From Dirinaria sp. TL-2023a (lineage: Eukaryota): a stretch of 64,000 nt of DNA. How positions within the stretch are numbered: the stretch's first letter is position 1; each line of letters starts with the position of its first letter. Positions 8,546-44,612 of this stretch are shown here, one piece after another. Below the pieces are notes generated by a model that saw only the letters and a program-made list of their open reading frames with translations, searched no databases and had not been told where the DNA came from. The DNA lies in contig JAVEBF010000002.1 in the NCBI GenBank assembly GCA_051941275.1, positions 1 to 64,000 of the forward strand, read 5' to 3'. A program made the translations under genes and the position numbers.

Positions 8546-9144
8546 TTGGTTGACAAGTGTATGTCCGCTGCGCATGCTTGTCATAGTGTAAAGGTTATGA
8601 CAATTTTCGAAACGTTTTGTTCTCTCTTTCACCCTTTTCAAACAAGTATCCTCCACTCCTCTCGGATGACGAAGAGTCGTCACGGCTTCGGCAGGCTTCC
8701 TTGCCAGTCGAAAAAGACACATGGGGGTGGCGGCGAATGACTTGAATGCTATCCCTCTACAGCCAATGTACATGTACCATGCATAAGCATATATGGGTAC
8801 TGGGGCGCCGCATTGAACAGCGAGCAGAGCATATAAATAGCACCGTGTATTCTGTGACAAATATTCAATGATGTATCATTGATTCAGCACGGGTGAACTC
8901 CCTGCATTCTTCCTTTTGGTTTGTCAAGATGCATAAGGTAAAAAACTGTGTTTGAGGTAAGATACCTTCGACACAGCGAACAAAATGACATCATGATTGG
9001 TTACGTTATGAAACCACCCGTGAAGCAGTACCTAAGGTAAGGTAAGGTATATAAGGTATAAGGTACCGATATTCCTACTTTATGTTGCCGAGCCTCATCC
9101 CCAATGCCGGTCAACTTCAGCATCAACTATCAAACAAGGCAAAC

Positions 9145-10260
9145 ATGTCGCGAAAGAGTCTAACCACACATCCATTTGATATCCAATGGCGAAAGGCCCT
9201 GGTAAGCCTACCGCGAGCCGTGCCCCTTGCCACGTTGAGAATCACCTCGCCCGAAGGCCCACAACCCTTCATCATGAACTTGCCTTCTCGCTCCAGCCAC
9301 CGGATCCCGCTCTATATATTCGTCCCCCCCGACATTACCGAGGAAACCGCCCCAAAGCTGCCTGTGATAGTCGATTTCCACGGGGGAGGATTCGTGATGG
9401 GATCATGCCTCGAACAAGCTCCCTTTTGCGCCAAGCTCGCTCGCGACCTCACGTGCGTGGTGCTGACAGTCGACTACCGAATGGGACCCATCGATAAGCA
9501 TCCCGCAGCACTAGAAGACGGCGAAGATGTCTTGAGCGCGATCCTGGATCCTGAAGTTGCGGGATACTCACCGCTACGCAAATCGATTGCGAAGCGGGTA
9601 TGCGAAACCAGCAGCACCACCACCAACAAGGACAGCAAACGCCGAAGCCGCTTGAAGCGGGAGATGATCGACCTCGATAGATCCCGGATCGCCATCTCCG
9701 GTTTCAGCAGCGGCGGCAACGCGGCGCTGAACATGGCTCTTTCAATTTCCTCCCCTCAGAGCAGGCTGGAGTGGCCGTCCCGCTTCCCAGCAGACCATCC
9801 TTCCAGCATCCCGCTCTTGCTTTTCTATCCTTCTTTGGATTGCAGGCAGTTGCCCTCTGAACGGACCAGACCGCCCAAGCTCCCGGTTTCGGGCGGGTTC
9901 TGGGCCGAGTTGGACGATAAGCTGATGCCGACGTATCTCCCCCGTGAGCAGGCCGGTGAGTCGCGAGCGTCGCCCGGACTGGCGGACCTGAGAGGCCTGC
10001 ATCCGCGAGCGAAGATGTTGCTCGTGTTACCCGAATTGGACTCGTTGGCCGAGCAGAGCGAAGTGTGGGTGAAGAAAGTCGTCGAAGGGGGCAGAGGCGA
10101 CGATCTTGCCGTTGCGAGGTATGAGGGTATGAAGCATGGCTGGACTCAGATGCCGGTGAGTTGGCTGAATGAGGAGGAGAAGAGGACTCGAGCCGAGATT
10201 TTTGAGCGCACGGTGGCTTTTATTCGTGGTGTCTGGGAGGGTGGGACGAGCGTAGCTTGA
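9145..10260 (+). CDS. Alpha/beta hydrolase (HSL/GDXG-type esterase-lipase)
   Basis: VIVDFHGGGF oxyanion motif, GFSSGGN nucleophile elbow, C-terminal HGW. Intronless; alternative start at 9082. Confidence 0.88.
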   Translation: MSRKSLTTHPFDIQWRKALVSLPRAVPLATLRITSPEGPQPFIMNLPSRSSHRIPLYIFVPPDITEETAPKLPVIVDFHGGGFVMGSCLEQAPFCAKLARDLTCVVLTVDYRMGPIDKHPAALEDGEDVLSAILDPEVAGYSPLRKSIAKRVCETSSTTTNKDSKRRSRLKREMIDLDRSRIAISGFSSGGNAALNMALSISSPQSRLEWPSRFPADHPSSIPLLLFYPSLDCRQLPSERTRPPKLPVSGGFWAELDDKLMPTYLPREQAGESRASPGLADLRGLHPRAKMLLVLPELDSLAEQSEVWVKKVVEGGRGDDLAVARYEGMKHGWTQMPVSWLNEEEKRTRAEIFERTVAFIRGVWEGGTSVA

Positions 10261-10631
10261 AGCTTGTACTATCTTCGTGGATGGTGTTGCACGTTAGAAG
10301 ACTCCAAGCTGGTGCTCGTTACTGGTGGGTAGGGCATCCGAGGCCTGGAAAACCACCTATTCCAGACAGTCTTAAGAAGAGGCGTAAGTATAGCATAGGC
10401 TTCACGTAGATCTTGCACCACTACTCATCGCATAGAAATTAGCCCTAAAATAGCGATCCTCGATCAGAAAATTCGCAAAGACGTCCAACTAAAACCTTTT
10501 TGGCAGTATAACCCAGGGCGTTTCCCTACATCGTTATCAGGCGGCCTAAATACAGCAACATAGATAGATTACTAAAGCCGTAACATCTCCTTGCCGAATT
10601 ATTCACTGGTGATGGTACCTTGTATTCCACA

Positions 10632-23020: not shown

Positions 23021-23445
23021 AATTGCAACGTTATTCAAGGGATGGCATTGGACGCGGTGCGCTATGCACGCCACGGGCATAGGCATAGGAAACGAAAAAT
23101 CATTGAGGTCAAAACTATGAAGCTGGACAAGCGGAACCGCAGCGCGAGGCGTTCTTTGCAATGGCGATATTCCGGGACGGTTGAAGAAAACTTGGGTGCT
23201 TTCATGCTGTCAATAGCAAATGCAGGGAAGAATGGCAGGATATTCGAGCTACGATCAGATCTCGTGCCAGTCTTGTGATGCTCTACGTACAATTTGTTTT
23301 TCCGAAGCAGCATGGGGGCTCAACATGCAGCAAAGGCCTACCTTACTTTGCAGTGTCGAACTGTGACGACTGTGACGACCGTGACGACCGTGACTGTGGA
23401 GAACGCCGATCGCTTGGCACCAGTCTTGGCCGGAAGCTAAAAGGA

Positions 23446-23559: not shown

Positions 23560-23769
23560 AAAGCTCGGGCCTGCAGTGTCTCGATCTTAGCTGCATAAAG
23601 CAAGCGTGGGCGTCTGAGTCTCGACAGCGATCGATCTTTGGCATTCGGTTATATCAACCATCCAGATCTCCTCTTTTTCCCAAGCCCTCTTCTCTGCTTT
23701 CATTTTCAATCTCTCTCCTTGTCCATCTACTATTCGCCTCTTGCTTGCGCAGTTCGAACAGTCTAAAGC

Positions 23770-26724
23770 ATGTCGGGAACGCCTCCCCTGAGCCAAGGCG
23801 TTGGCTACGGTGTGATTGTGGGGCTGGGCTTCGCCTTTGCCCTGGGAATGATATTGACCACTTGGACCCTCAAAAAGTACCAGAATGAAGTTCAAACGTC
23901 GGAGATGTTCAGTACGGCCGGGAGAACAGTCAAGTCTGGCCTGGTTGGTGGGTAGCTACCTTACCTTCTTTGCCTAACGTCATGGCGCCGAACAAGTTAT
24001 GTTTTGCATGCTTGAAACTTACAAGCGTAACAGCTTCAGCTGTGGTATCATCTTGGACGTGGGCAGCCACATTGCTCCAATCTTCTGGAGTTGCATATCG
24101 ATACGGCGTGAGTGGGTAAGTCATTCTCAGAGCCAGTTCGAGCGTGTCAAGAGCCATAAGATATGTCTGAGTAATATCTGCTCCAAAGACATACTTCTTA
24201 GCTCAATCTTTTTTGCTCAGAAACATAATGCTGACATCAGAAACCTTGTAGTGGCTTTTGGTATAGTGCAGGTGCAACTGGTAAGTTGTACTCAACAAGA
24301 TCTCTTCAACCCTGTCTGAGTTTGCCAAACACCACAAGATACATCTAAGTAGCAGCTACTTCAAAGACATGCCCATTAGCTTAATCCTTCGTCTCAAAGA
24401 CAAAGTGCTGACGGCGAAAATTTGTAGTGCAAATTATCCTGTTTGCCACGGTAATTGAACCAATACCAATGTCAGGTCTCAATCACTCGAGTTAACGTTG
24501 TCCCAGCTCGCGATTGAACTCAAGAAGAAGGCAAGCAAAGCCCATACCTTCCTGGAAGTTATCAGGGCTCGTTACGGCGTATATACCCACCTAACTTTCA
24601 CTATCTTCGGATTAATGACCAACGTGCTCGTGACTGCGATGCTTCTCACCGGCGGCTCTGCAGTTTGCACATCATTGACAGGCATTCATACAGCAGCTGC
24701 ATGCTTCTTGCTTCCTGTTGGAGTGGTGCTGTATACAATGTTTGGGGGAATCAAAGCTACCTTTTTGACTGATTGTACGTATGCCATGTGCACAGGCTCG
24801 TTTCGAGATATGTGCTGACTGTTTCATCCTCAGATGTCCATACTGTAAGTCATTTCACGATATCGAAGCTGCGACTGTTAATTTCACTCGGCAGGTCATG
24901 ATATTGATCATCATCATTATTTTGTATGTTAATGCAGGTAACCTTTTCAGGGCGTAACTGATTATGCCAAGCGCTCTCACCGCATTTGGAACCAATGCAA
25001 ACCTGGGCAGCCCCAGCAAAGTCTACGACCTCCTTGTCGCCGCAGCTAAGGCGCACCCAGTAGCAGGGAATGCCGAGGGTTCTTACCTGACCATGAGGTC
25101 CAAAGAAGGTGCAGTGTTCTTTGTTATCAATATCGTGGGGAATTTTGTTAGTAAACCCATTCTCTTCTCCGATGCATGCCTTATCTATACAACCGAGAAA
25201 TGCTATGTTACCAGTCTAGAGATTGGCACGCTTGGAGCTGACTGTTGTTTTTCTCAAGGGTACGGTTTTCTGCGACAACGGGTATTACAATAAAGCCATT
25301 GCAGCAAGCCCAGTCCATGCGTTGCCCGGGTACATCATGGGAGGTCTCAGCTGGTTCGCTATTCCTTGGCTTGCCGCAACAACTATGGGTCTCTCCGCCC
25401 TGGCACTAGAAAGTAATCCAGTATGGCCGACCTATCCTTTTAGAATGGCGGATGCGGATGTGACCGCAGGTCTAGTCATGCCGAATGCAGCAGTGGCTCT
25501 GATGGGTAAAGGTGGAGCGGCAGCTGTTTTGCTTTTGGTTTTCATGGCCGTAACTTCGGCCAGTTCCGCGGAATACATCGCCGTATCGTCGATTTGGACA
25601 TACGACATATACCAAACGTACTTCAATCCTAGGGCAAGCGGGAAGACATTGATATATGTCTCGCATGTGAGCGTTGTAGTGTACGCTATTCTACTAGCGA
25701 GCTTCTCCACTGGTCTCTATTGTAAGTCTCTTACGAATACTCTTGAAATAGACATACTGATAGTATCAGATATTGGAATTTCTATGGGCTGTGAGTAGCC
25801 GGACGATTTGACTGCTAACCTAACTAATCCCTGTCTGATAGATCTGTACCTCTTAATGGGCGTCATCATCTCTTCTGCCGTGCTCCCCGCTACACTCTCT
25901 TTAATGTGGAGTAAACAGAACATGATTGCCGCGACTTTGAGTCCTTTTCTTGGCCTTGCATGTTCTCTCATCGCATGGCTTGTCACAGCCAAGAAGCAAT
26001 ATGGAAATCTCTCCGTTGCCAGCACAGGCAGCAAGTACGTTCATTCTAAACTCTGCTCTACCTCATCTAACCCCCAGCACCTTGGCCCACTCAAAGCTTC
26101 TTTTATTACTACTAACAGGGATTTTGCAGCAACCCCATGCTCGCCGGTAATGTTGTTGCCCTGCTCTCGCCCCTTATCTTCGTCCCGGTCTTGACATACA
26201 CCTTCGGTCCTCAAAACTACGACTACAAATCAATGGCCGCGATCCGCCTTAGCGACGACACTGAAATCGCACGCCAAGCACACACAGACCTCGAATCCAT
26301 CCCCGGTACACAGACAATTACTGACGCTCAGCAAACGGAAGAAGAACAAGTGAAGCTCCGCCGTGCATCCAAGATCGCCAAGTCCATGACCGTGATTTTG
26401 ACGATCGCGCTTTTAGTTCTGTGGCCTATGCCCATGTACGGCAGCTCATACGTATTCAGCAAGAAGTTTTTCACAGGATGGGTGGTTGTGGGGATCCTCT
26501 GGATCTTCTGCAGCACCTTCTGTGTTGGACTCTATCCTCTCTTTGAGGGAAGACACAGTCTGATGCGAGTCGCAAGAGGTATCATGGCGGATCTGAAGGG
26601 CGGCAACGGCAGAGTAGTGAGGGGCGAAGGCAGCGACACTGCCAGTAGCGATCGCGTAAGTGGAGAGCGAGCGAGTGAGAAAATCGATGAGAAGCAAGCT
26701 ACTGCGGTGGTAGGGGAGAAGTAG
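23770..26724 (+). CDS. DUR3: Urea active transporter (sodium:solute symporter family), intron-rich
   Basis: [89 protein letters not shown]. About a dozen introns with micro-exons. Confidence 0.95.
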
Positions 26725-28910
26725 GCTCATGGCTGTTTCGTGAACGTCAATATGTGTGGATTCCTCTCTTTATTTGATTTTCGTCTGTCAATCCTAAAAG
26801 CCTTACGTTCGTTGTTACTGGAGCCTTTCTGTACATGTATTTAGACGATCAAAGGGCTAGGTTTCGGTGCCTTACACAGCCATGATGTGTACTTTTACGA
26901 ATGCACGATATAACGATGGACCCAAGGACCAGAATCTACCCAGTGCCAAACTGTCAAGTCGTGATATCACATATGTTGACTTAGGTTTTCATGGAGGTTT
27001 GAAATTAGACCCAAGATAGGACACTACACTTGGAATGACTTTACAGTGGGGGGACATTGGATTGACTCTCAAAGCTTTGTCTACCACGAGCAAATTCCAA
27101 AATCATGAAAAACATTCAGGATCGCATCAAGAGATACTGCTACGATAACGATGAAAAGGAACTTTTAAGATAGAACTATAAGCATCGGTATATTCCATTA
27201 GAGACCTCGTTCGGGATCCGCCGATGCTTAGTATTGACACGGGGAGATACTATTATCCTGGATCATTAGTAGGAGAGATTACGCAAACAATAATTGTGAG
27301 ATAGAATGTAAGATAGTAGTCAGGGAAGAGGAGATAGCCCGAGGCAGTACTTTTTGGGAGTGACGAACTGTGTGGAGTTTTGATATCGATATCATAGATT
27401 GAACGAATGGATGGGAGCAGCTGACACTCTTTAGACTAATGCAAAATTCAGTTCAGGTGATGAGATACACTAAGATCGTTCTTCGAAGCAATCTTGCAGG
27501 TTCCCCCACATAATCAATAATTCTTGCTTGCTTGACTATCATGTGGGGGATTCCCATTAAGGCAACAATCTGCCCTGAGGTTAGAAGATACACGCCAAGG
27601 CGCTACTGATGTCAAGGCTCTACCTTAGACGACGACCATCAGACCTTACCTAAGATCCGAGCGGGGCGGAAGTGCTCTATCCTGACATCGTAGCTCGATA
27701 ACATGAGGATATCCATCAATACCTACACCGCTTCAAGATGCCTTATCTGACGACGACGTCCATGAATTAGCAGCGTGTTCACAAGATGCCTCGCGCTGTT
27801 CCACTTGAATACCCTGTAGTTCCGATTCCAAGCAAATACCAGCTAATCATGAAATTCTATGGAATTCCATACTAATGGTATTGTCGAAGGAGCTGAATAA
27901 GCCTAATATCTGATATGTTCGCATGTCAGAGATTGATCCCGACATCGATTAACAGAATCGCTGACGATCGAGTCCAGAGGAGTGGCATTAAAGAGTCAGG
28001 TCATTGATACAATCCACTACAAGACAGGGCAGTCTTTTTCCCATATTACGTGCTTTCGCTTACCTACTGTATACGAGGAAAGCGAAGGAAGTTTACTAGG
28101 ACCACCGCTCCGGATATTATTCAAGCTTCACGTATCGTAAGGTATTCTCTCATCTGCAACGACTTCAAGAGTCAGGGTCATTCTCCTTGATTTCATAGAT
28201 AGCAATCTACATGGATAGTTTCATAGGAACTTTGTTCTCACAGCCGTGCACAAATTCAGTGTATCGAGGCTTGCAAACAGCTAAGATGACCAAGACGGGA
28301 TCATTGCGCTTCGCCAAGATACCTATGAAATTCTCACCAAAGCAGACTTAGGCATCGCTTCAAGGCATCGAGGATGGGAGATGCTACGTCATACCTTACC
28401 TTATGACTTCTGAGGTGGCCTTGCGAAGGCGCCGGCGATTTGGATCCCCCATAGTGAGCTCAGCCAATATTTGGGATCAAGAAGATAGCGGCGCGGTCTG
28501 TAGTACCTAAGGTACTGCACATGTAGTTGGAGACTGAGTCATCGATCAAAGCAAACTTCAGTGGACTTGATACTCACCGATTGCCGACAACTGGGTTTCT
28601 ATAGACAGGTCAGGTGAGAAGTCTATGGCTTCTTGGTAGTATTGGTTACGGGGTAGAGTGGAGAATGCTCTATCAGGTGACGCAATGCTCTTTCCCTTGC
28701 CTGGCACCATCCCATGGTGAATTCCCTCAGCTTCCATTCCCATTATCAATCCCGATTGGGCTAGCAGGGTGGGGCGCGTAGCAGTCATCGACCCACTTTC
28801 TTTCCAGTTCCTCTCACTTCCTCTCACTTCCACTTCCTTCTTCACCTCCCCTCCCCTCCCTTTCCCAAACCTCTTCTCCCATCAACCTACACCTATCCTC
28901 CTCCACAGAT

Positions 28911-29656
28911 ATGTCGTACACCAACATGCAGCGCCACAACGGCCGATACAACCCGAAAGCTGCCTATAATTTAAATACAACAGCTCGCAAGGTTTTGAGT
29001 AAAGACAAGGCTATGAGATGGATCAAGCGCCCAGATCGCCCCCTAGCACTTCTCACAAACGCGGTCTTTAGAGAAGTCGTTATGCTGAACCCCAGCACCT
29101 GGATAAATCACCCCAGAACACCTTCAGTACTCAGTGCGAGATCGATCCAACATATACGAGACCGACTTAGCCAGATCGTAAGCGTCCTTCGCGTACTTAT
29201 TCGTACGTATCACTAACCTGGCTATCTAGGCCCTAAGGGGCAGAACGTCGCCCGCAGCACCTCAGAATGTTCAAGATGGGCACGTTACTGAGGACCACGA
29301 AACTGGGGAAAGCTCTAGTCAGAACGTAAGCGTCCTTCGTGTGCTTATTCGTACGTATCACTAATCTAGCTATTTAGGCCCTTAGGGGCAGATCTTCAAC
29401 GGCACATGTAAGAATCGTTTGTGTCCTCCTCGTGTTGCACATCATTAATACAATCTTCTAGTTTCAAAATGATGCAAGCCTTCAAGCCCGCGTGGATAGT
29501 AAGTGTCTTCAGTTTTGTTGAATGACAATTTACTAATGTAGTGACTTAGAGTTTTTTAAGGAGCTGGAGCGTAAGGACCTTTCATGTTCTTAGAAGAAGT
29601 ATCACTAATCTAGGTATCCAGTTGAGCTAGAACAGCCGAAACCACATGAAGGCTAA
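28911..29656 (+). CDS. Orphan protein, ~161 aa, 6 exons (intact paralog, copy 1)
   Basis: Exons 28911-29177, 29230-29325, 29378-29407, 29462-29498, 29550-29570 and 29622-29656 sum to 486 nt with an open frame; all introns are GTAAG...YAG. Homologous to 31144-32452. Confidence 0.65.
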
Positions 29657-31143
29657 TGATACATGGGAAATAGCGCATTTATGACGCTTAACATTAGCAT
29701 TTACATAATTAGCTATAGCTGGCTAGAAAAGAACACTGTTGTGCAGTCTTCTACATACACGTCCACGCCGACGAGGAGAATCGTCTGTAGGTGGTGCCGA
29801 CTACCTTACGCAACCGGTGCTACGTGCAGTATGAGGTGTCAATAATTCTCTAAGGGATACAATCCGCTCGGGGATGAATGAGCCACCATGGGTACCCCCT
29901 AAAAATCGCCCCGTCCATAAAGTATTGATGCATGTTCCACTAATACGACGGATAACTGGCTTTACAGCGGTCAATTTTGTATCGAATCGGCACCCAATTC
30001 AACAACAAGTAGAGGAGCAGGCGACAGAAACGGACCCACCACCACCCCCACCACCCCACTTCAAACCACTACATTCATTGGGAGAACGATCAGTGGCCCA
30101 CGTCTTACCGCCAGCTAGGCGTCAAAGACCAACCCATCGGGTAACGATCCAGGCAGCAAGCGTATACCCATGACCCCGGCCTTCGCAACGCCCTGCTGAG
30201 CATTAGGCGGGCATTGAGGGTCATAAAAAATCGTCAGTCAATAAGGTACAGATAACAGAGGAGGCGCATGTAGACGCGTATGTTACAAGGTCCACCACAG
30301 ACACATTTATCTTACTGGGCGAACTCTATGACATGGTATGATGGGTTTGATAGGGTACCTATGGATGTACGGTACGGGCGCTACGAACAGCGTCACCGTT
30401 TTCCTTCCGGGCAGATGTTTTGTGACGGACCTGGGGGAGAGATTCTCAGACCTCCTTTGGGAGCGAGCAAAGCAGTGTAGGACAAACCTTCATGGGAGCA
30501 CGGCGACAAACAGTCTATATCCTATCATAGGAGGGACGATGATGTAACTATTCCTGTTTCTATTATACAGATCAACGCTAACCGCTGCTGCCAGATTCAA
30601 ATGAAATTAATTGCGATGGTATGGGGCGCTTCCAATCGTAGGCTCAGTGAGTAACTAGTATCAAGCGCCTAACAAAGAGGTGTGTCACAGTGGACGGCTT
30701 GTATTTCGTACACGTACAAGGTAAGACTTTGTACCTTAGAAGAGCCCAGCGACGCTGATAGGTAATGACTCACCTTCTCCTGCCGGGTCGAGGTCTTTGA
30801 GCAGGTGGTATATCTTCTAGCCCTTGGTCTACCTTGAAGTGTGGAGTGGAGCATGCTCTATCAGCCGACCCCTCATTCTTTCAAGGCAGCCGGTTCTCCT
30901 TCCCTTGTCTGACATCATCTGGTGGTGAATTACCTCCCTTTCCCCCCATTTGACAATTCCGATTGGGTTAGTTTTTTTGTGGGGCGCGTAGTACCTTCAT
31001 GATTTGTCACCGACTCACTTCCTGCCCACTTCCTCTCACTGCCTCCCACCTTCTCACCTTTTCTCCCTTCTCACTCACGCTCCACATCTTGTCTCAAACA
31101 ACACCCCTCTCCATTGTAGCGTCTACCAAAACAATTCGTGAAA

Positions 31144-32452
31144 ATGCCACGCAACAATGGGTGAACAGGAGACAGCTCAGAAAACAATGTCGATACAACC
31201 GTGCGCAGACGCGGCAACCAAAGCAAAGCTAGAACATGGCAACGACATCACTACTGCCCTGTGGAGCAACTGAGCTCCGCCGTATTTAGGGAGCTGGTGA
31301 TGCTTGACCCAGCCCCGTACATCAACCATCCGCGGACAAGCTTAGGATTCAACGCTCGATCCAGGCAGCATCTGCTCAGTCGAGTGGCGGTAGGTACCTT
31401 GCATATACTTGCTATTCGGTCACTTATTTCTGCCAACAGCCGCCAACAGCCGCTTCAAGCTCTGGTCAAATCGTAAGCATCCTTCGTGTCTGTATGTGTA
31501 CATGTCACTGATCTAGCTACTTAGACTCTATGGAGCAGTACAACTCGGATCAAAACGTAAGCATCCTTCGTGTCTGTATGTGTACGTACCACTGATCTTG
31601 CTACTTAGGCCCTAAGGGGCAGTAAAGCTGAAGAAGGATCTGGGGAAAGCCCTAGCTCTCACCAAATCGTAAGCATCCTTCGTGTCTGTATGTGTACGTA
31701 TCACTGATCTAGCTACTTAGGCCCTATGGGGCAGATCACCTTTACATGGACCTGGGACTGAAAGCACCGCCGAAAACTCCAACTCTGATCAAAACGTAAG
31801 CATCCTTCGTGTCTGTATGTGTACGTATCACTGATTTAGCTACTTAGGCTCTATGGGGCAGTACAACTCTGATCAAAACGTAAGCATCCGTCGCGTGTGG
31901 ATGTGTACGTATCACTGATCTAGCTACTTAGGCTCTATGGAGCAGTACAACTCTAGACGGACCTGGGGAAAGCTCCAAGTCTGATCGAAACGTAAACATC
32001 CTTCGTGTATGTATGTGTACGTATCACTGATCTAGCTACTCAGGCTCTATGGAGCAGTACAACTCTAGACGGACCTGGGGAAAGCTCCAACTCTGATCAA
32101 ATCGTAAGCATTCTTCGTGTCTGTACGTGTACGTATCACTGATCTAGCTACTTAGGCCCTTCGGGGCAGATCTTCAAGATCTCATGTAAGGACCGATAAT
32201 GTCCTCGTTTTGCAAATCGCTAATCTAGTCTTATAGTCGGAGGATCACGACTTTCAAGCGCGGGTCGATCGTAAGTGTTTTGAGTGTTATTGGATGGCAT
32301 TTTACTGATCTAGTAATTTAGGATTTTTTGAGGAGTTAGATCGCGAGTTAGATCAGAAGGAGGCTTTGGAACGTGAGGAGTTGGAACGTAAGGATCTTAT
32401 ATGTCCATGAATGATATATCGCTGATCTAGCTTTTCAGGCTCTGCAGAGTAG
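31144..32452 (+). pseudogene. Paralog of the orphan gene (copy 2) with expanded micro-exon array, an in-frame TGA and two frameshifting exons
   Basis: AVFRELVMLDPAPYINHPRT aligns with copy-1 AVFREVVMLNPSTWINHPRT; shared terminal exons (QARVD, FF.EL). TGA at 31162 aligns with copy-1 CGA. Two 32-nt exons break the frame. Confidence 0.55.
31473..32155 (+). repeat. Tandem array of 7 near-identical 52-nt intron repeats separated by 32-75 nt variable exons
   Basis: Consensus GTAAGCATCCTTCGTGTCTGTATGTGTACGTATCACTGATCTAGCTACTTAG starting at 31473, 31557, 31669, 31796, 31880, 31992 and 32104. Confidence 0.95.
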
Positions 32453-33306: not shown

Positions 33307-34760
33307 TAGACCTATAAAAGCCTTTTCATCGACATCAAATCCCCCAAGACGCCGGACACCCATGAAGAATGCTGTACCTCAATTTTCGATTACACCGTCT
33401 TCCATTGCAGCCCTCAACACGATGGCTATTTATACTGTGGTGGTCCTCCATACTGTGGCTGTCCATACTGGGATTGTCCTCCGGGTCCTCCGCCCGGCCC
33501 TGTACCTGGAGGAGGCACTTGCATAGGGCCGGCGCCTGGATGTTGCGATTGTACGTCTGGCCGCATACTGCAGATCCATATCACATGAGCAATGACCCGT
33601 CTACCGAAGGAAGTGCCTTGAAGCGGATCGTAGGAGGGCTACGCCAACAAAGCTTTGAGCGTGCAGCTGCGATAGGACAAGCTTACCTCAGGTCTTGCAT
33701 AAAGTGGCAGATGCGGCAGGCAACTTCCTAAGACGCATGTGTTAGCCAAGATTCTTCCCGCAAAGGTGCCATGCACCCAGAGAGACCAACCTTATACTTG
33801 TGCGTCGAGAGCGGGATGACTGGCTGTTGGCAGACTGTTAGATCGCAGACCGCCTTTCTCCGAAGGAGGATCGCTGGCGCATACCAAGAAGCAGACAGTG
33901 AACCATGGCCTGCACATTTGGAATTAGCCCACGCGCTTTGAAAGTTGGACCGATAGCACGCCGTAGCCCCATGTCCTCTCTCAGTGGAGCTCACCATCTT
34001 GTAATACATTGCGCGCTCCAATTACCACCTGATGGAGAAGACCATGATGTTAGCGCTGCTTGTGGCCTGGACGTTTAAAGGGCGCGCCCGGAGCACGAAG
34101 GGGTTGCACTGCAAGGCAAGGAATGGTGCTACTTGCAGTTGTGACATTGCGCGGTCCTAAGGATGGCTTCGTCAGCGTTTGGGAAAACATGTTGCATAGA
34201 TCCCCAGGCTATACTAACACGCCTTGATAACCTTCGAGCTGGTTGGTGAATTCTATCGTCACCAAGCAGCTGTCAGCCCCCCAGGTCTTATGTAAGGTTT
34301 TCCAGAAGCTGCATTTTGCGATAGGAGTTTAACTTACCATGCGTACCAAAAGTTATGCAAAATGCCATGACCTTGAATTTAGATGTGCATTTCGGAGACA
34401 GGAGAGCAATGGCAGGCGGTTGTTGGATGAGGCCGCGCGGAACGGTTACTATGCTACGCCACAGTAGGCTGCGCCTGCAGAAATCAGCCTACCATAGGCC
34501 GATGTTATCCCGGTACACGGTTTAGGCGCCACATCCCATCAACCTTAGCATATGTAGGTTTCCTTCAATGTTATTCATGTTGCCTGCAAACATGTTCTTT
34601 GTGTCCTCCTTTTTTAGGTATCACTGATCTAGCTATCTAGACCCTTAGGGCGAGATAACGCCTGAAATGCCTGACGCAAAGGCAGGATGCCACCCGACAC
34701 ATCATCCACTTCTAGTGTTTAGGCCCGGTCCTTCCGGGCACTTGCCCAACGTGTCGACAG

Positions 34761-35449: not shown

Positions 35450-35991
35450 GCTCCCTTCTAGAAGGCCTGAGAGAATAGCGCACTTTTAGGTCGTGTCCTA
35501 ACCGAGATCAATTGCTAATTTGCACGCCCTTTTTGGGGAGGATATTCAACTGGCTTCTTTGATGGAGTTTGAGCGTTTGCGCCTTTGGAGGCAATATGTA
35601 ATATTACTTCTCCTTATGCACTCCATATGCCCCGGTAAGAAGGAATGCTCTTACTATTACCATCATCTACAGACGTAGCTGCTTGATTCGTATTTGTGAT
35701 CGCTTCAACGATTTGACGAGTAGACCATGGTTGCTCGTTGGTATACTGAGCCATCAATATTTCATTTATTCGTTTTTGTCTATCAGAGTCCCACTGCGGG
35801 TAAACCACCCTTCCCAATCTTCGTTACGTGTCTGCAGGGAAAGAGGGTGAGTTCCAATTTAATACAGAAGAGGTCAGAGTTATGCTTGCAATCGTAGTAA
35901 ATACCGTCATGTTAATGCAGAGTTAGATGCTTCTCTATTTAATATGTGAGCAATAATTATATTTAATTTTAACACAATTTATCAGAACTCA

Positions 35992-36119
35992 GCCTCGGTG
36001 GCGTAGTGGTAAACGCGTCAGTCGGCCGGTGAGGGAAAGGCTAGCCCGGACCCTCAGACAAGAAACGCCCCAAGGGGCAGACACGCCTGAAGACGGAGGT
36101 TCGAATCCTTCCCGAGGTC
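35992..36119 (+). tRNA. tRNA-like gene copy 1 (non-canonical anticodon arm with ~56-nt insert; identity undetermined)
   Basis: Acceptor GCCTCGG/CCGAGGT, D arm GCGT-AGTGGTAA-ACGC, T arm GGAGG-TTCGAAT-CCTTC, followed by an oligo-T terminator. Confidence 0.7.
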
Positions 36120-36328
36120 AAATTCTTTTTTTTTTTTTCTTTTTTTTTTTTTTCAATTTGTACTTCTACCCATCGAAACGTATCTAGAATCAAGATCAGA
36201 TTAATGCTCGCAAATATAGTGAGATAAATCATGTTCACGTAGATCACGATTCGCTGTTGACGCAGTGGTTCTCAATTTGAATGGATGCAATGATTATATA
36301 TAATTTTAAGACGGTTTTTCAGAACCCA

Positions 36329-36456
36329 GCCTCGGTGGCGTAGTGGTAAACGCGTCAGTCGGCCGGTGAGGGAAAGGCTAAACCGGACCCTCAGACCAGA
36401 AACGCCGATAGAGGCAGACACGTCTGAAGACGGAGGTTCGAATCCTCCCCGAGGTC
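36329..36456 (+). tRNA. tRNA-like gene copy 2
   Basis: Same cloverleaf arms, T stem GGAGG/CCTCC, oligo-T downstream; starts 337 bp after copy 1. Confidence 0.7.
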
Positions 36457-36662
36457 AAAGTCTTTTTTTTTTTCCTTCTTTTTTCATTTGTACTACTACC
36501 CATCGAAAAATATCCAGAATCAAGATCAGATTAATGCTCGCAAGTATAATGAGATAAATCATGTTGACGCAGAGCAGGATTGGCTGTTGACGCAGTGGTT
36601 CTCAATTTAATAATATGTGTGCAATGATTATATTCAAAATTAGCCGTGTCTATCATATTCAA

Positions 36663-36770
36663 GCCTCGGTAGCGTAGCGGTGGAACGCATCATTCGGCCG
36701 GGGGAGGGAAAATGGAACGCCCCTAGGGGCAGGTCGTCTGAAGACGGAGGTTCGAATCCTTCCCGGGGCA
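36663..36770 (+). tRNA. tRNA-like gene copy 3 (diverged, shorter insert)
   Basis: Acceptor GCCTCGG/CCGGGGC-A, D stem GCGT/ACGC, T arm as in copy 1, followed by an A-run and then a T-run. Confidence 0.65.
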
Positions 36771-38165
36771 AAAAAAAAAAAAATTTTTTTTCCCTTCTTT
36801 GCTTTCTTTTCGTTTCATAGTACCTACTAACTACTACCTACATGCATCGAAACATACATATCTAGAAGGAGATCAGAGTAATGCTCGCAATGATATCTTC
36901 TCATATCATCTCATGTAAACGCCTATGCTAAACTTGAACCATTTCCAGATTTGACGGCAGTGGGATCGATCTTTTGCATTGATACCAGTCAGAACTTACG
37001 TCTCTCAATATCTTTCCATTAGAGCCAAATTTATCCAGCATTCGCATCTTGAAACCAGATCAGCTAGCATTAGGATAAATCATAGAAGATCAATGCTGCC
37101 ATTCGATAAGTAGACTCTATCCAGCTTGCTTGTTGAAGGACAGCTTCATCTGAGTGGTGCCACGCTTTAGTAGATGCTGCATCTCAATCACACTCCGGGT
37201 CAACATCGCTGCCATGTATTATCAATATTTGCCAACTATCCCTCGCAAATTCCGTTGAAATTGCGCTCCAGTCACCTTGTCTATTAAATACTAGGCAGGG
37301 TTTGTGGTCAGATAGATCTACCTATGGCGACCTATCATAGAGCAGAGGCATGTAGGTGACGCGGAGAGCCTCCTGGAATCATCATGGTGTTCAATGATTC
37401 CCAACAATTTAACGTTGAGGTGTTCGTAGGGTGGCAGACAGAATTTTCTGCAATTTATTTTTTTTTTTTTTTTGCCCCGAAAAGGCCTTCTCAAATATCA
37501 ACATGTTTCTGATATTGATTGATTTTGAACAACGCTTTATATAGCTATCAAAAGTGCAAGACAGTTGAGTAACCACGGAGCTACCTTACCTATAGTAAGT
37601 CATGTACATGTAGGTAAGGTAAGGTGCCCTAAACATGTGTAACCCTACCTAGCTCTGAGCTACCTCATGGTACCTAGCGTTGGCTATTGAGGCAGCTAGC
37701 TGTTGACGGAATGCTATAATCGTTGAGTAATAAGTCATGAATACTAGGATTGCTTTACAATACGTAAGTCACGGTGCTGAAAGCTGGTATCCTTCGATTT
37801 GTGTATCACTTTGTTGGTATTTAGGGTTGAATGACTAATCGGTTAAAAATGCCGTGCTGCAAAAGGTCATGCACTGTGATAAGCAACGGGACCTCGTCAG
37901 AAGCATCTACAACCCAGACATCATGTGTCGACTACTCTCAAGCTGTGGTCATCGTGGAGGTTCCGATCTGTCCACACAAAGAATGAGTCAGGCCGAGATC
38001 TACCGAGCTCATGGGTCATCCTCCTCGAACATAGTTTGTCTACTGAGAATCCACCAGGCATAAAAGGTCTTTACAGCGCTCTGGCAACGCTGCAGTGCTG
38101 TGAGCCCGACATGGAGGTCCATTGGTGCAGCTAAAACTTCTAAATCCTTACACATATCGAAGAAC

Positions 38166-41100
38166 ATGGCCTACTTCATACCGTCCTTCATACAGAAGCG
38201 TATCTTACGTTATGTCCTTTCGCATCTTGAGCTCTTGGAAACCGAAGACTTTGATCTTGACAACTTAAATATAGAATGGGGAAAAAGAAGCTCGGTCGAG
38301 CTGCGTGACCTTGGGATACGGATACAGAAGCTTTCTACCCTCCTGCAACTGCCACCTAATTTTCTATTAGTCAAGGCCAAGGTTTCGCTACTACGAATTA
38401 CCGTCCCCGCCGATCTATACAAAAATGGAATCTTGATCGAAGCAGATGGCTTAGAATTAAGGCTGGATGCAAGAGAGAACGAGAAAGGCAAAAGCGACCA
38501 GCAGAGGGTGTCTCCGAAAGACGGTGAAAGACTGGGTCCAGACAAAGGTGAATCGGACCAAACAAGGAGTAACCAATACCATGTACACGATCCCGGAGGG
38601 CATAGCCAACCTTCCACGAGGGAGCATAATGCTGCGGGCAGGAGGTCTTCAGACCACTTGCCGACCGCTATCGACTTAGCAGAATCGTTCTTGGAAGCTG
38701 AGCCGCAGCCAGAAAAAGCTAAGTTGCATAGCGCGCTTGCACAGTCCCAATATGCCGATCAGTCTCAAATCATTGGCGAATATAGTGAAAATGCAGCCGG
38801 TTTGGGTGTAGGGGCTGGTATTTCCTTGCCCGGTTTTGTTGCCGACTTTTTAAAAGGGATTGCAAATCGGGTTCAGCTCATTATACGGAATACAGACGTG
38901 GATCTAGCGGTTGACCTGATGATACCATCTGGAAAGACTGCTGCGGAAAATTCGCAGAAGGCAGAGCAGGTGACGCTGAAACTCAGTGTTGGAGAGGTCG
39001 CACTGGACGGCATTACTGATACACCATCGGCACCAGCTGGTGACAGCAAGGAGTCCGAGAGCCAGTATCGTCAGGGTCCAGAACGATTGCTGCCAAAAGA
39101 GAGCCTCCGGCGCATAACGCTACGAAGACTTAAGGGCATGCTGGTTGCTGAAAGCTCTTTGTTCACATACCTGATCCGTTGTAATGTTCCGCCTTCTCCA
39201 AATACTACGCAATCTAGCGCAATTCGGAGGGCCAACACAGAAAATTCGTCACCGAGCTTGCCCCTAGGCACATCAGCTTTTGGCGCTGAGATATACACAA
39301 GTACGCCCGTGATTCGGGAAGCAACATCCTACCTTCACTCTCCGACCTCTCTCCCAACTTTGCATTTGAACCAGTATCAAAATGAGGATGTGCAGAATCA
39401 ATCTGTTGTAACGTCCACGCGGCCAGACAGTTCTGATCTCGGCTCGAGTCAACCTCAACAGAATGATATGAAAGATTCAATTTATTCGGACTCTCGATCT
39501 AGTCATGATAAGCAAAGTCCTCTCAGTGATATACCTGGATCTTTCTCTCCACCGCACACCTCGAGGAGCAGCCACAGCTTTCCAGAAGAACTGTTCGTAG
39601 ATAATCCAAGCTTTGTGCAGAACGAGACTTCTGGTCAATACGTTGACTCTCCTTTAAATTCATCGAATCAAGCCTTGGAGAGCGGTCAAAACTCCCCACA
39701 GCTTTTGACCCTGGCTCAATCGAAGCTCTTCAGCCACGAGGAAGCTGAAAGTATGTACATGAGCGCCATGACTTACCCTGCATCGGGAGAGCAGAGCGCA
39801 TTTCGCTCATTGAAAAAGATGCCAGGCGACTGGGGAGACTCTGGCTCCGAAGATGAGCAACGTACAGTAGACAAGGAGCAGGCGAAGATGGATGCAACCG
39901 GCGAATTAGCATCTACGGAAAATCCCGGTAGCGGTCTAAGGATACGATCTTTGTATTCGGATACTCCAGAGCTTACAGCACCCCAGCGGGCTGACCAGGA
40001 GTCTACTAGGGAAGAGTCAATACAGTCGATATTTGCAAAGCAAGCTGATACCACTGTTACGGCTGCCTCTACATCCTCTCAACAGGCTTCATCAAATAGT
40101 TCCCAAGCCAGTTCCTCGAAATTCGATCGTGGATTGCTGGTTGTGAAGGAAATTTTCGATGTAGACGTCGTCGTCATCGAGCTTTGTGAAGCCATAATCG
40201 CAAATGAAGACAGTGTTCAACTTAGTAAAAGGCACCAACCTCCGTCCGAACAGCATGAGCCAGGCTCAGGATCGGCAAGTACTAGGTACGGACCACGAAG
40301 GTCGGTGAAAGTAGGGGCTGTCACTATCCTAGGTGACCTGGGGCTCACTAAGCTAGCAATTATCACTATCCAGCGATTTGTAGAACTGCTGAAGCCAGCC
40401 TCCCTCGGGCTTGCTAATAAACCGGAGTCGAAAAGGTCGTCCAGCCGGATAATGATTCGCGTCAAGCGATTCTCATGGCGATTTCTTGACCTTGTAAGGG
40501 GACTGAGCACATCGTGCCCTTCGACTTCGTCACCGGACCTTCAACCTGCAGGAAAGCCGGATGATGCTGAGGTACTGCTGAAGGCTGTCATTCTAAATTT
40601 GAAAATAAATCTGGAAAGAGACGGACTGTCATCCTCATCCGTTGTGTCAGTCGGTAAATTCAGCTTTGGATATGCCACTGAAAACGTCATCTCCTTCGAT
40701 TCTGGATTGAAATTGAGGGAGTCTACACGCGACATTCTAGCGCCGATTGATCAAGATATGATATTGAAGATCACAGAATCGCCACATCACAGGCATTGGG
40801 AATTGACGACCTTACCCTTGCACATTAGACTTGACCTACGCCGATTGGATGAAACTTTCAGCTGGTTTGGCGGGTTCAGCAGTATTATCGGTTTAGGAAA
40901 TTCTATGATGTCAACAATCACGGTTGTGGATATCAGCCCAAATCCAAGTCGGCCCGCCAGAAGTGCTCGAGGGGTCCATTTCGAGCACGAACCACTGCAG
41001 AGCCGGCCTCTGGTATCTGAGGTCGATTGCAAACAGAAAATCACCATTAGATTTGGCAGTGTCGTCCTTGATTTTGAGGGTGCTTGCTGCTCCTTCCGAC

Positions 41101-44100
41101 TAGAAAGTACAGCTGTCAAAGTGGTGAGTCGTGAAGAGGGCATCGGGTTGGCAGTCGATCGGCTCAACCTCACTGGGCCAGATCATGGTTCTGACGCCTC
41201 TACTTCCTCGATTAATGCCAAGCTAATAGCGCTACGCGTCGAATACCTAACGACTCCCAAAGACGTTGATTTGGCTCGTTTGCTTGGATTACTCTCTCCT
41301 TCAAAAGATGGATACAAGGAGGAAGATGACGATATACTGCTCGGAACTCTGTTTCGCCAAAGACGCCAAGGTGGTGTTGTCCGTGTCAATGCTGAGAGAG
41401 TTGAGTTTGGGGTCCTTGACATAGAAGATCTCCACTGCTTGCCTGCCCTTGGAGAAGAGATGAAGAAACTATCTACCGTTGCGAAATATCTTCCAGCAGA
41501 CGATCGGCCTGGCATCATGACTATTTTGCTGGTTCGAGAGCTACATGCTCAAGCCAAATTCCTGGAAAACGTTGGTACCTTACAACTTACAGCAAAAAAC
41601 GCCGAGGTGGCTCACATTAGTATTCCAAGTCTAGTTGCTTTGGGCATAGGGAAGCTAAGTGTTACACGGAATTCTTCCGAAGAGCTTCTAGGAGAGGCTG
41701 AAGGCGCTTTTGTTGACAAAGCATCGCCTCCAACGATCATGGCTCGGTACGTTGGCAATGAGTTGGAGCCTACTGTAAAGATACGTCTTTACAGCCTCCG
41801 TGCGGAATATCACGTCTCAACGATTACCTTAATGCTGGGCCTCCATGAAGAGGTGACGCAAGGAAAGTTGGCAAGCTTGGCTTCTTCTATAGCTACCGTA
41901 ACAGGCCAGCAGCGAGCAAGGCGATCACCTCCCCAGCTCTCCGCTCGAGCGTCGGGTAAGAGCGATACCTGCACGGTGGGCTCAAAGACTTTGAAAATAG
42001 ATTTTGCACTCCGAGATGTGATCTTAGGGCTAAATCCACGCAACTCACCTGCACGGGGTCTCCTTGTACTTACTGACGCTCACCTCGTGAGCACATTGCC
42101 AAAAGATGAATTGGTCAGCGCTCGTCTGGAGATCAATAAGGCCTCGCTGTTGGCTATCGATGATGCGAAGAACGTCATAGTGCCCAATTCTCCATCAAAG
42201 CGCGTTTGCTCCAGCGGTCAAGATAGTCAAATGCAACATTTGTTAGACAGAGGCTACGTGTCGTTGAGCTACGTCTCCGCAATTAAAGCGACTTTAGAAG
42301 TCGTCAGATCAGCTCTGGAAAATGGCAAAACGGTCGAGCTTGAATTGCGCGATAATTTACTTGTCATCGAATCATGCGCAGACTCGACACAGACTTTGCA
42401 GGCCATCCTTAACGGGCTGCAGCCGCCCTCTCCATCTAACAAAGAGCCAAGGTTCAGGACAGAAGTCGTACCTGTTGAGGACATGCTTGCTTCATTCTCG
42501 GGGAAACCTTTCGTGGCCCCTGGTCAGGATAACAGCCAAGATGCGAATGTATCTCTTGAACTGGACGACGCCGACATGATGGAAGACGATGTGCCTCAAA
42601 ATCTTGAATTTGTGAGCAGCTTTTACAATCCAGACCCTATTTCTCTGAATGATAGTATTGCACAGAGCATGTTAGAGGGGGATCTCGAAGCCTCGCCAAA
42701 ACCTACAGCAACTCGCAACATTGGAGACAAACCACTGCTCGAGAGCTTTCAAGACCGTTTTGAGGTTGCTCCCAACGAATCAACACTCCACTTTCGCGAT
42801 GATCATTTTGGTAATAATTCCAGTGTTGGAGGAACTGCCCACAGGTGGAATGTCAAGAAGAACACCTACGAATTGACAAATGAGCCTCAGATTCGTGCAA
42901 GCCCGTTGAGGGTTCGCGTCAGAGATGTCCATGTCATTTGGAATTTGTTTGACGGTTATGATTGGCAGAAGACCAGGGATGCTATTAGTCAAGCTGTAGC
43001 AGCTGTCGAAGAAAAAGCCACTGAGCAAAGGTCGAAAAGACATCAGCGCCAATCTTTGGATGCCGAAGAGGAGGAAGAATCCGTAATTGGGGATTTTCTC
43101 TTCAACTCAATATACATCGGCATCCCTACTAACCGCGATCCAAAAGAATTGAGTCGTCAAGTCAACCGTAACATTGACGATCTCGTGAGTGAAACAGAGA
43201 GCTATGCAACGTCTTCAGGGTCGGGATCGCCCAGTCGCCAGAGCCGCGAACATCGCTCCAAAGGCAGGAGGCTCCGACTTCGTCGCAGCAAATACCACAA
43301 GATGACATTTGAGCTTAAAGGCGTTTCAGCGGATATGATGGTGTTCCCTCCTGACTCTGGGGAGACTCAGAGCTCGGTTGACATTCGCGTAAATGATTTT
43401 GAGATATTTGACCATGTGCCGACATCCACTTGGAAGAAGTTCGCAACATACATGCATGATGCAGGCGAGCGTGAAAGCGGTACCGCTATGATCCACCTCG
43501 AGATCTTGAACGTAAAACCCATTCCCACTTTGACTGCATCAGAAATGATCCTCAAGGTACGCGTTCCTTGAATCTTTCATGGGTCTTTAGCTGACTGCTG
43601 AATGTAGGTGAATATACTACCACTCCGGCTTCACGTAGACCAAGACGCGTTAGACTTCATGATGCGGTTCTTTGAGTTTAAGGACGAATCAACACTGGTT
43701 ACGAACTTGAAGACGGAATCTCCCTTTCTTCAGCGAGTCGAAGTACAATCAGTACCGGTGAAACTAGATTTCAAGCCTAAACGTGTTGACTATGCAGGTC
43801 TTCGCTCTGGACATACGACTGAATTTATGAACTTCTTCATCCTCGATCAAGCGGATATGGTACTCCGCCATGTCATCATATACGGCGTCTCTGGATTTGA
43901 CAGGCTGGGGAAAACGCTGAACGATATATGGTCACCGGACGTCAAACGCAATCAGCTTTCTCGTGTCTTAGCCGGGCTTGCACCTGTACGATCGTTGGTA
44001 AATGTCGGTGGCGGGGTCAAAGACCTTGTCGTAGTCCCAATCCGAGAGTACCGGAAAGACGGCAGAGTAGTGAGGAGCTTCCAGAAAGGTGCGCTAGCTT

Positions 44101-44612
44101 TCGCGAAAACTACTACGAGCGAGCTCGCCAAGCTGGGAGCTAAACTTGCCCTCGGTACTCAGACTGTTCTACAAGGCGCCGAAGGGTTCCTGGCTCCGGA
44201 TAATCAGGGACCGGATTTGTCATACGGCTGGGAAGAAGCGGAGTTTGAGGATGAAGACAGAAAGAAAATCAGTCTGTACGCTGACCAGCCGGTAGGTGTG
44301 GTGCAGGGTTTAAGAGGTGGCTACGCGAGTCTGGAGCGAGATTTGCTCATGGCCAAGGATGCCATTGTAGCAATGCCTGGCGAGGTGATGGACAGTGGGT
44401 CAGCCGGCGGTGCAGCTCGAGCCGTGCTTCGAACCGCGCCCACGGTAATCCTAAGACCTGCTATGGGAGTGAGCAAAGCAGTGGGACAAACGCTGATGGG
44501 AGCGACGAACAGTTTAGATCCTGCCAATCGTAGGAGAGCGGATGATGTGAGTGTTCTAGATTCTGCACAGATCAACGCTGACCGTTGCCGCCAGAAATAC
44601 AAGCGGCATTGA
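38166..44612 (+). CDS. ATG2: Autophagy-related protein 2 (lipid transfer protein), 3 exons
   Basis: N-terminal chorein-like [60 protein letters not shown]. Introns at ~43557-43607 and ~44546-44594. Confidence 0.95.

Follow-up and report, generated by a model that had tools for sequence, protein, structure and literature searches.

How two neighbouring introns of a single gene came to resemble each other, when the exons around them do not, is the question raised by a DUR3-type urea active transporter gene on contig JAVEBF010000002.1. The 64,000-nucleotide (nt) stretch that was analysed, positions 1 to 64,000 of the forward strand, is called the window here. From the letters of the window, a first-pass annotation had proposed that introns 2 and 3 of this gene are sister introns, one copied to a site 29 nt away or both derived from a mobile intron family. 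Our analysis confirmed that introns 2 and 3 are homologous (paralogues). The idea common to the two proposals was supported by this homology, by the splicing of both introns, by their location at positions of intron gain and by their unduplicated flanks. We regard a duplication within the same gene, without exon duplication and in an ancestor of the host fungus, as the probable origin of the pair, and a mobile family as a less likely one.

The gene, the two introns, the exon between them and the two copies of the homologous block are as follows.

23770–26724, plus strand: gene for a DUR3-type urea active transporter of the sodium:solute symporter family, with 12 exons, 11 introns and 688 codons plus stop
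24116–24251, plus strand: intron 2 (sister intron), 136 nt, codon 87 phase 2, with GTAAGT donor, TGCTGAC branch site and TTGTAG acceptor
24154–24251, plus strand: homologous block, copy A, 98 nt at the 3′ end of intron 2 with branch site and acceptor
24252–24280, plus strand: micro-exon between the sister introns, 29 nt, 11 residues including the split codons at both ends
24281–24427, plus strand: intron 3 (sister intron), 147 nt, codon 97 phase 1, with GTAAGT donor, TGCTGAC branch site and TTGTAG acceptor
24332–24427, plus strand: homologous block, copy B, 96 nt at the 3′ end of intron 3 with branch site and acceptor

Local alignment of copies A and B gave 71 identical positions out of 96 (74%), with 19 transitions, 6 transversions and 2 gap positions. 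The score for the whole introns was 57, against a mean of 16.7 (standard deviation 2.5, maximum 32) in dinucleotide shuffles, and none of the 5000 shuffles reached it. Trimming the splice signals (first 6 and last 30 nt) left a score of 41; the shuffles then averaged 15.6 and peaked at 30, so that none of 5000 matched it. When all 55 intron pairs of the gene were compared, the intron 2/3 pair alone stood out (z = 17.1; runner-up, 3.1); introns 1 and 4, like every other DUR3 intron, showed no similarity to introns 2 and 3 in this comparison. BLASTN of the 64-kb window against itself recovered the pair at E = 1e-6. Both introns have the form G/GTAAGT...TGCTGAC...TTGTAG/TG, where slashes mark the splice junctions.

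The intron coordinates and lengths, the G/GTAAGT...TAG/TG contexts and the 29-nt spacing given by the first-pass annotation were exact, and its remark that the differences are mostly transitions was borne out. It had further described a colinear alignment of ~110 nt: the homology withstood the shuffle test that it had named as a possible refutation, whereas the aligned length came to ~98 nt. Repeat-induced point mutation was considered as the source of the transition excess and rejected, because 6 of the 19 transitions lie in a CpA/TpG context and the changes are bidirectional. The Kimura two-parameter distance between the copies, computed from the alignment counts, was ~0.34; the duplication is therefore old.

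The similarity stops at the 3′ splice site. The BLAST match runs 2 nt further because TG comes after both introns. The exon flanks (29–30 nt upstream and 23–29 nt downstream) were dissimilar, with 1528 and 1677 of 3000 shuffles, respectively, scoring as well as the real sequences. The spliced DUR3 protein is colinear with its orthologues and has no added, missing or repeated residues. The earlier description of the flanking exons as conserved, non-repeated DUR3 sequence thus stands.

The gene model starts at the ATG at 23770, stops at 26722–26724 and has a coding sequence of 2067 nt. Its identity was examined with exon 9 (154 residues) as a query, which matched 1534 proteins at E ≤ 0.001; those with names were urea active transporters (DUR3). 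The precomputed domain PF00474 is found on the named DUR3 homologues, whose designation as urea active transporters was given by their sources. The closest named matches to exon 9 came from the lichen-forming Lecanoromycetes Ptychographa (89%), Schaereria (88%) and Agyrium (88%), and the host is therefore taken to be a lichen fungus of the class Lecanoromycetes. In the full-length DUR3 alignment, identity to the first sequence was 68–94%, which places the gene in the DUR3/PF00474 family. The model also agreed with protein P0001, encoded on a 2332-nt contig, across the exon junctions. A short run of GTGACGAC-like units lies at 23363–23400, ~370 nt 5′ of the start codon. The remaining introns and micro-exons of the gene are listed below.

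23948–24033, plus strand: intron 1, 86 nt, codon 60 phase 1
24428–24450, plus strand: micro-exon, 23 nt
24451–24506, plus strand: intron 4, 56 nt, before codon 105, phase 0
24775–24833, plus strand: intron 5, 59 nt
24834–24844, plus strand: micro-exon, 11 nt
24845–24894, plus strand: intron 6, 50 nt
24895–24923, plus strand: micro-exon, 29 nt
24924–24971, plus strand: intron 7, 48 nt
25147–25258, plus strand: intron 8, 112 nt
25722–25769, plus strand: intron 9, 48 nt, codon 420 phase 1
25770–25790, plus strand: micro-exon, 21 nt
25791–25841, plus strand: intron 10, 51 nt
26035–26129, plus strand: intron 11, 95 nt, codon 491 phase 2

Introns 2 and 3 had been called longer than most; they are in fact the longest in the gene, the other nine measuring 48–112 nt with a median of 56.

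Both sister introns are genuinely spliced. Of six sequencing runs returned by one search, four were compared with the window, and contigs at least 80% alike were considered: X1 and X2 (RNA), X5 (DNA) and X6 (an air metagenome). The X1 and X2 RNA contigs match the window at 95–99%; since both sets derive from a single lichen metatranscriptome sample, they count as one line of evidence. They omit all 11 DUR3 introns at exactly the modelled borders and support all five micro-exons. Intron 2 is skipped at the joint 24114/24251 (136 nt) and intron 3 at the joint 24279/24427 (147 nt), each with GT..AG ends. In a 2332-nt contig of X2, exons 2 and 5 are separated by exactly 52 nt (29 + 23), and even the 11-nt exon can be read between two joints. 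None of the matched X1/X2 RNA contigs retained an intron.

The two introns are present in a relative as well. X5, a set of lichen metagenome DNA contigs, contains a relative ~90% alike; over the gene, one of its records departs from the window at 146 of 2092 positions (7%) and another at 29 of 293 (10%). Its contigs cover intron 2 in full and the first 44 nt and last 52 nt of intron 3, the 3′ coverage being lengthened by a loose end of 15 nt that is one letter off the window; the stretch 24325–24360 of intron 3 falls between contigs. X5 contigs also span introns 5–11 colinearly. Relative X5 thus has both introns, and the duplication predates the split from it. The distance of ~0.34 between copies A and B is several times the 7–10% divergence from X5, which fits this order of events. 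Three insertions (1, 1 and 10 nt) are found in intron 2 of X5 at 24124–24132, within the 5′ part that cannot be aligned between the sister introns; this part of intron 2 therefore changes by indels. The air metagenome X6 yielded a 228-nt contig nearly identical to 24217–24444 and two exon pieces of other organisms, and is uninformative on copy number.

We mapped intron positions in orthologous DUR3 loci. Metagenomes were scanned with 19 aligned DUR3 proteins, and the loci considered are the best 80 of 526 confirmed ones in a tblastn ranking. One of the two search patterns, YGVSG[PG]FW, spans the intron-2 site and could thereby bias the set; the other, AVVSSWTW, is blind to introns 2 and 3 and occurs in 63 of the 80, among them every close locus. 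In every one of the 80 loci a single tblastn alignment ran through residues 72–112, with no insertion whatever in 75. The insertions in the other five are introns that sit elsewhere: L035, L049 and L052 have one at codon 94 phase 1, which is 9 nt upstream of the intron-3 site; L056 has one at codon 84 phase 1, which is 10 nt upstream of the intron-2 site; and that of L009 lies near codon 72. No intron was thus found at the intron-2 or intron-3 position in any of these best 80 loci. The closest of them, L008 (88%), L003 (86%) and L005 (85%), are uninterrupted over residues 36–273, 1–273 and 32–273, respectively.

At least one intron occurs elsewhere in the DUR3 gene in 51 of the 80 loci, which are therefore genomic DNA rather than transcripts. 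As controls, the position of intron 9 is common exactly to L008, L005, L003, L054 and L046, and that of intron 11 to L008, L005, L054, L046 and L035, indicating that the mapping does detect common positions. Because both sites are intron-free in all 80 loci, 51 of which have introns elsewhere, and because introns 9 and 11 are shared, we conclude that the window's lineage gained introns 2 and 3 before it split from X5. The comparison with DUR3 orthologues called for by the first-pass annotation therefore did not reveal the ancient, shared positions that would have spoken against its proposal. All 80 loci are also contiguous at the positions of introns 1 and 4, and we conclude that these two were likewise gained in the window's lineage.

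Of the 11 DUR3 intron positions, only those of introns 9 and 11 are exactly shared with the mapped loci. Introns 6 and 10 had no exact match among the loci examined, and introns 5, 7 and 8 (24775–25258) lie 3, 1 and 2 nt, respectively, away from introns of the other-lineage fungal DUR3 loci L050/L053 and L054, whose splice sites are predicted from the sequence.

L050, 2645–2748: near-coincident intron
L053, 1525–1627: near-coincident intron
L054, 6622–6674 and 6851–6896: near-coincident introns

This near-coincidence could reflect intron sliding or independent gain at almost the same site. One distant metagenome locus, L078, carries two tandem DUR3-like genes (6001–7887 and 8569–10371), which are 40% and 44% identical to P0001.

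In the duplication that we consider probable, an intron already in DUR3 would have been copied into the coding sequence 29 nt away, with no exon sequence duplicated. Each copy would carry its own donor, branch site and acceptor, so that the spliceosome removes both and the 29-nt micro-exon remains. The copying could have begun with the excised intron being reverse-spliced into the adjacent exon of the same transcript, followed by reverse transcription and recombination. A templated copy made at the DNA level during break repair would have had much the same outcome. We infer the route from the features of the pair: homology ending at the acceptor, full splice signals, the same orientation and adjacent sites are as expected from reverse splicing in the same transcript.

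The bases around the two sites bear on which copy is the parent. At the intron-3 site the window reads ACT G/TG CAA, and in L008, which has no intron at this site, G TG CAA is found as well; TG is thus ancestral there. At the intron-2 site the window reads GG/T GGC, where all 10 orthologues printed have GGN CCN, so that the downstream bases are derived. Codon 88, directly after intron 2 (24252–24254 region), encodes Pro in 77 of the 80 loci, Ala in 2 and Ser in 1, and the Pro88-to-Gly change was seen only in the window and in P0001–P0003. Intron 3 may therefore have been the parent, its copy taking two exon bases (TG) along. Because an excised lariat contains no exon bases, this pattern would lean to copying at the DNA or pre-mRNA level.

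Introns duplicated within a gene are known from other fungi. Collemare, van der Burgt and de Wit (2013, PMC3609843) reported 82 same-gene duplicated introns in 24 fungi, half of them without exon duplication, and ascribed the latter to transposition in the same transcript or to transfer between paralogues. The DUR3 pair resembles these cases in that one gene contains two similar spliceosomal introns and the exon flanks are unduplicated; no copy in other genes was found in the sequence searched here. It differs in lying at two gain positions, whereas the published duplicates occupy demonstrated gain positions in 0 to 1 cases per species, and in its lichen-forming host, a kind of fungus absent from the 24 species studied.

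Several points weigh against a same-gene duplication. Beyond GTAAGT, the 5′ parts of the introns (38 nt in intron 2 and 51 nt in intron 3) cannot be aligned, with 540 of 5000 shuffles equalling the real score in global and 867 of 5000 in local alignment. A copy of the whole intron, which is not shown, would need later indels in this part, where X5 does carry insertions in intron 2. The published duplicates, found by BlastN clustering, are near-identical; the 74% identity of the DUR3 pair is far below this and extends over the 3′ two-thirds only. At ~2.5 times the gene's median intron length, the sister introns also have a trait of introner-like elements (ILEs) rather than of same-gene duplicates, which are of ordinary length (PMC3609843). 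The parentage of intron 3 is a weak hint that would rest on a two-base match, perhaps due to chance. The tblastn ranking of loci may have favoured intron-poor genes, and copies in other genes are possible, the searched sequence being limited to 694 kb plus the contigs of four runs. Finally, the neighbouring lineage-specific introns 1 and 4 are dissimilar to the pair, which leaves a single local process behind the whole cluster a conjecture.

The most serious competitor to a same-gene duplication is a dispersed mobile intron family, introner-like or low in copy number, of which introns 2 and 3 would be separate insertions, related through a source at another place in the genome and neither copied from the other; we consider this possible but doubtful. 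According to PMC3609843, the ILEs of Dothideomycetes (van der Burgt et al. 2012) occur in tens to hundreds of copies in unrelated genes, have unusually stable folds and are about double the length of regular introns. The sister introns resemble them in length (136 and 147 nt against a median of 56, with this gene's introns as the only yardstick), in their canonical signals (GTAAGT, CTGAC, TAG), in being spliced and in their gain positions, and the gene has further lineage-specific introns. Introners have been reported in Pezizomycotina (PMC9860276), and a small hairpin with one compensatory G-C/A-U change is common to both introns. Against a family, no further copy was found in the sequence searched. 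BLASTN self-comparison revealed no third copy of the block in the 64-kb window, and in an nhmmer profile search of the window and the 80 loci (694,038 bases) only the two known copies scored, the next best having E = 1.3. Among the 102,337 contigs of X5 only 5 were at least 80% alike, all of them colinear with the gene, and X1 and X2 gave only DUR3 mRNA contigs; these searches covered the window, the 80 loci and the run contigs, and old copies below 80% identity would be missed in the runs. ILEs are expected to decay until they are indistinguishable from ordinary introns (PMC3609843). Two independent insertions 29 nt apart would also be unlikely unless the family were very abundant.

The first-pass annotation had suggested folding the introns for the stable hairpins typical of ILEs, and these did not appear: against 200 shuffles, the stability of the whole introns was not unusual (z = −1.05, with 36 of 200 shuffles at least as stable, and z = +0.30, with 123 of 200), nor was that of the homologous blocks taken by themselves (z = −1.70 and −0.64). 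A consensus fold of copies A and B came out weak (−6.05 kcal/mol, 2 of 16 pairs compensatory), and two sequences give such a fold no statistical power. Transposon-type Introners (Gozashti et al. 2022, PMC9860276) are similar introns made by insertion, marked by target-site duplications of 3–9 bp and/or terminal inverted repeats. The DUR3 introns share short flanking direct repeats with them and differ in lacking terminal inverted repeats, no inverted repeat linking the intron ends having been found. The only direct repeats flanking the introns are TGG/TGG at intron 2 and TG/TG at intron 3. That TGG is not a plain target-site duplication, since the codon number equals that of intron-less orthologues and its removal would leave the protein one conserved codon short. 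Two further explanations are far less probable. In a segmental (tandem) duplication, an intron would have been copied with adjacent exon sequence that was later lost or diverged. Half of the published fungal same-gene duplicated introns arise in this manner according to PMC3609843, and the DUR3 copies are direct repeats just 29 nt apart. The exon flanks are nevertheless dissimilar, the spliced product is colinear with all orthologues and unchanged in residue number, and a duplicated exon of 29 nt, which is not a multiple of three, would shift the frame; we hold this origin to be very unlikely. That the resemblance is not homology at all, arising instead by chance, from shared splice signals or composition or through a convergent constraint such as an intronic RNA or a micro-exon splicing element, is scarcely credible. 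The block does include a branch site and an acceptor, which are alike in any two introns. The shuffles, however, failed to reach the observed score even without the splice signals, and none of the remaining 54 intron pairs, whose signals are the same, came anywhere near it. An Rfam search of 23700–26800 gave no match at E up to 1, and hence no known intronic RNA such as a small nucleolar RNA; the weak consensus structure likewise speaks against a constrained element.

A same-gene intron duplication has parallels outside the fungi. Homologous nearby introns in one gene of Oikopleura dioica and a duplicated Xdh intron of Drosophila reportedly represent new introns derived from an intron of the same gene, and are said to have been taken as evidence for reverse splicing. 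Those cases belong to animal lineages. Near-identical Oikopleura introns are mentioned in PMC3609843. The sister stwintrons of Hypoxylaceae and their related canonical introns (PMC8469720 and PMC9024468) likewise form families of similar introns at new sites within Pezizomycotina. They differ in being nested or internally symmetrical and in occupying many genes; in DUR3 there are two ordinary introns in one gene, with an exon between them that is retained in the mRNA. Our literature search found no paper that combines 'introner-like elements' with 'Lecanoromycetes', and neither 'lichen' nor 'Lecanoromycetes' occurs in the main text of PMC9860276.

Introns 1–4 (codons 60, 87, 97 and 105; 23948–24506) fall within 45 codons, and only two of the four are mutually similar. 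New introns clustered side by side with micro-exons hint at repeated local copying of introns in the DUR3 gene. It is a speculative and rather unlikely extension that the pair is all that can still be recognised of a localised burst of intron gain in the lichen-fungus lineage, with new introns placed beside existing ones. Such a burst might have proceeded by reverse splicing within a transcript or by local templated copying, leaving micro-exons behind. Should this hold genome-wide, the lichen-forming Lecanoromycetes would offer a new system in which to study the gain of introns next to one another, a process without a general model according to PMC3514964. Documented intron gains with a recognisable source are rare, and here parent and daughter would lie in one gene, 29 nt apart. 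As a same-gene duplication, the pair would be a clean case of a new intron copied from its neighbour with the coding sequence untouched, and would show, in a lichen-forming fungus, how micro-exons can arise. It would leave the known picture of intron gain unchanged, as a clear but not unprecedented example of same-gene intron copying.

The window contains other repeats downstream of the gene. A tandem array at 31460–32170 consists of 84- and 112-nt units that match at 82–93%, with related copies at 29170–29394 and 34615–34656 and no long open reading frame across it. A direct repeat at 35928–36890 has an offset of ~338 nt and 81% identity over 538 nt. A stretch of 158 nt is 75% identical between 44448–44595 and 30442–30595, 14 kb apart. 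An uninterrupted plus-strand open frame of 1835 codons extends over 38064–43571, in contrast to the intron-rich DUR3 gene 11 kb upstream.

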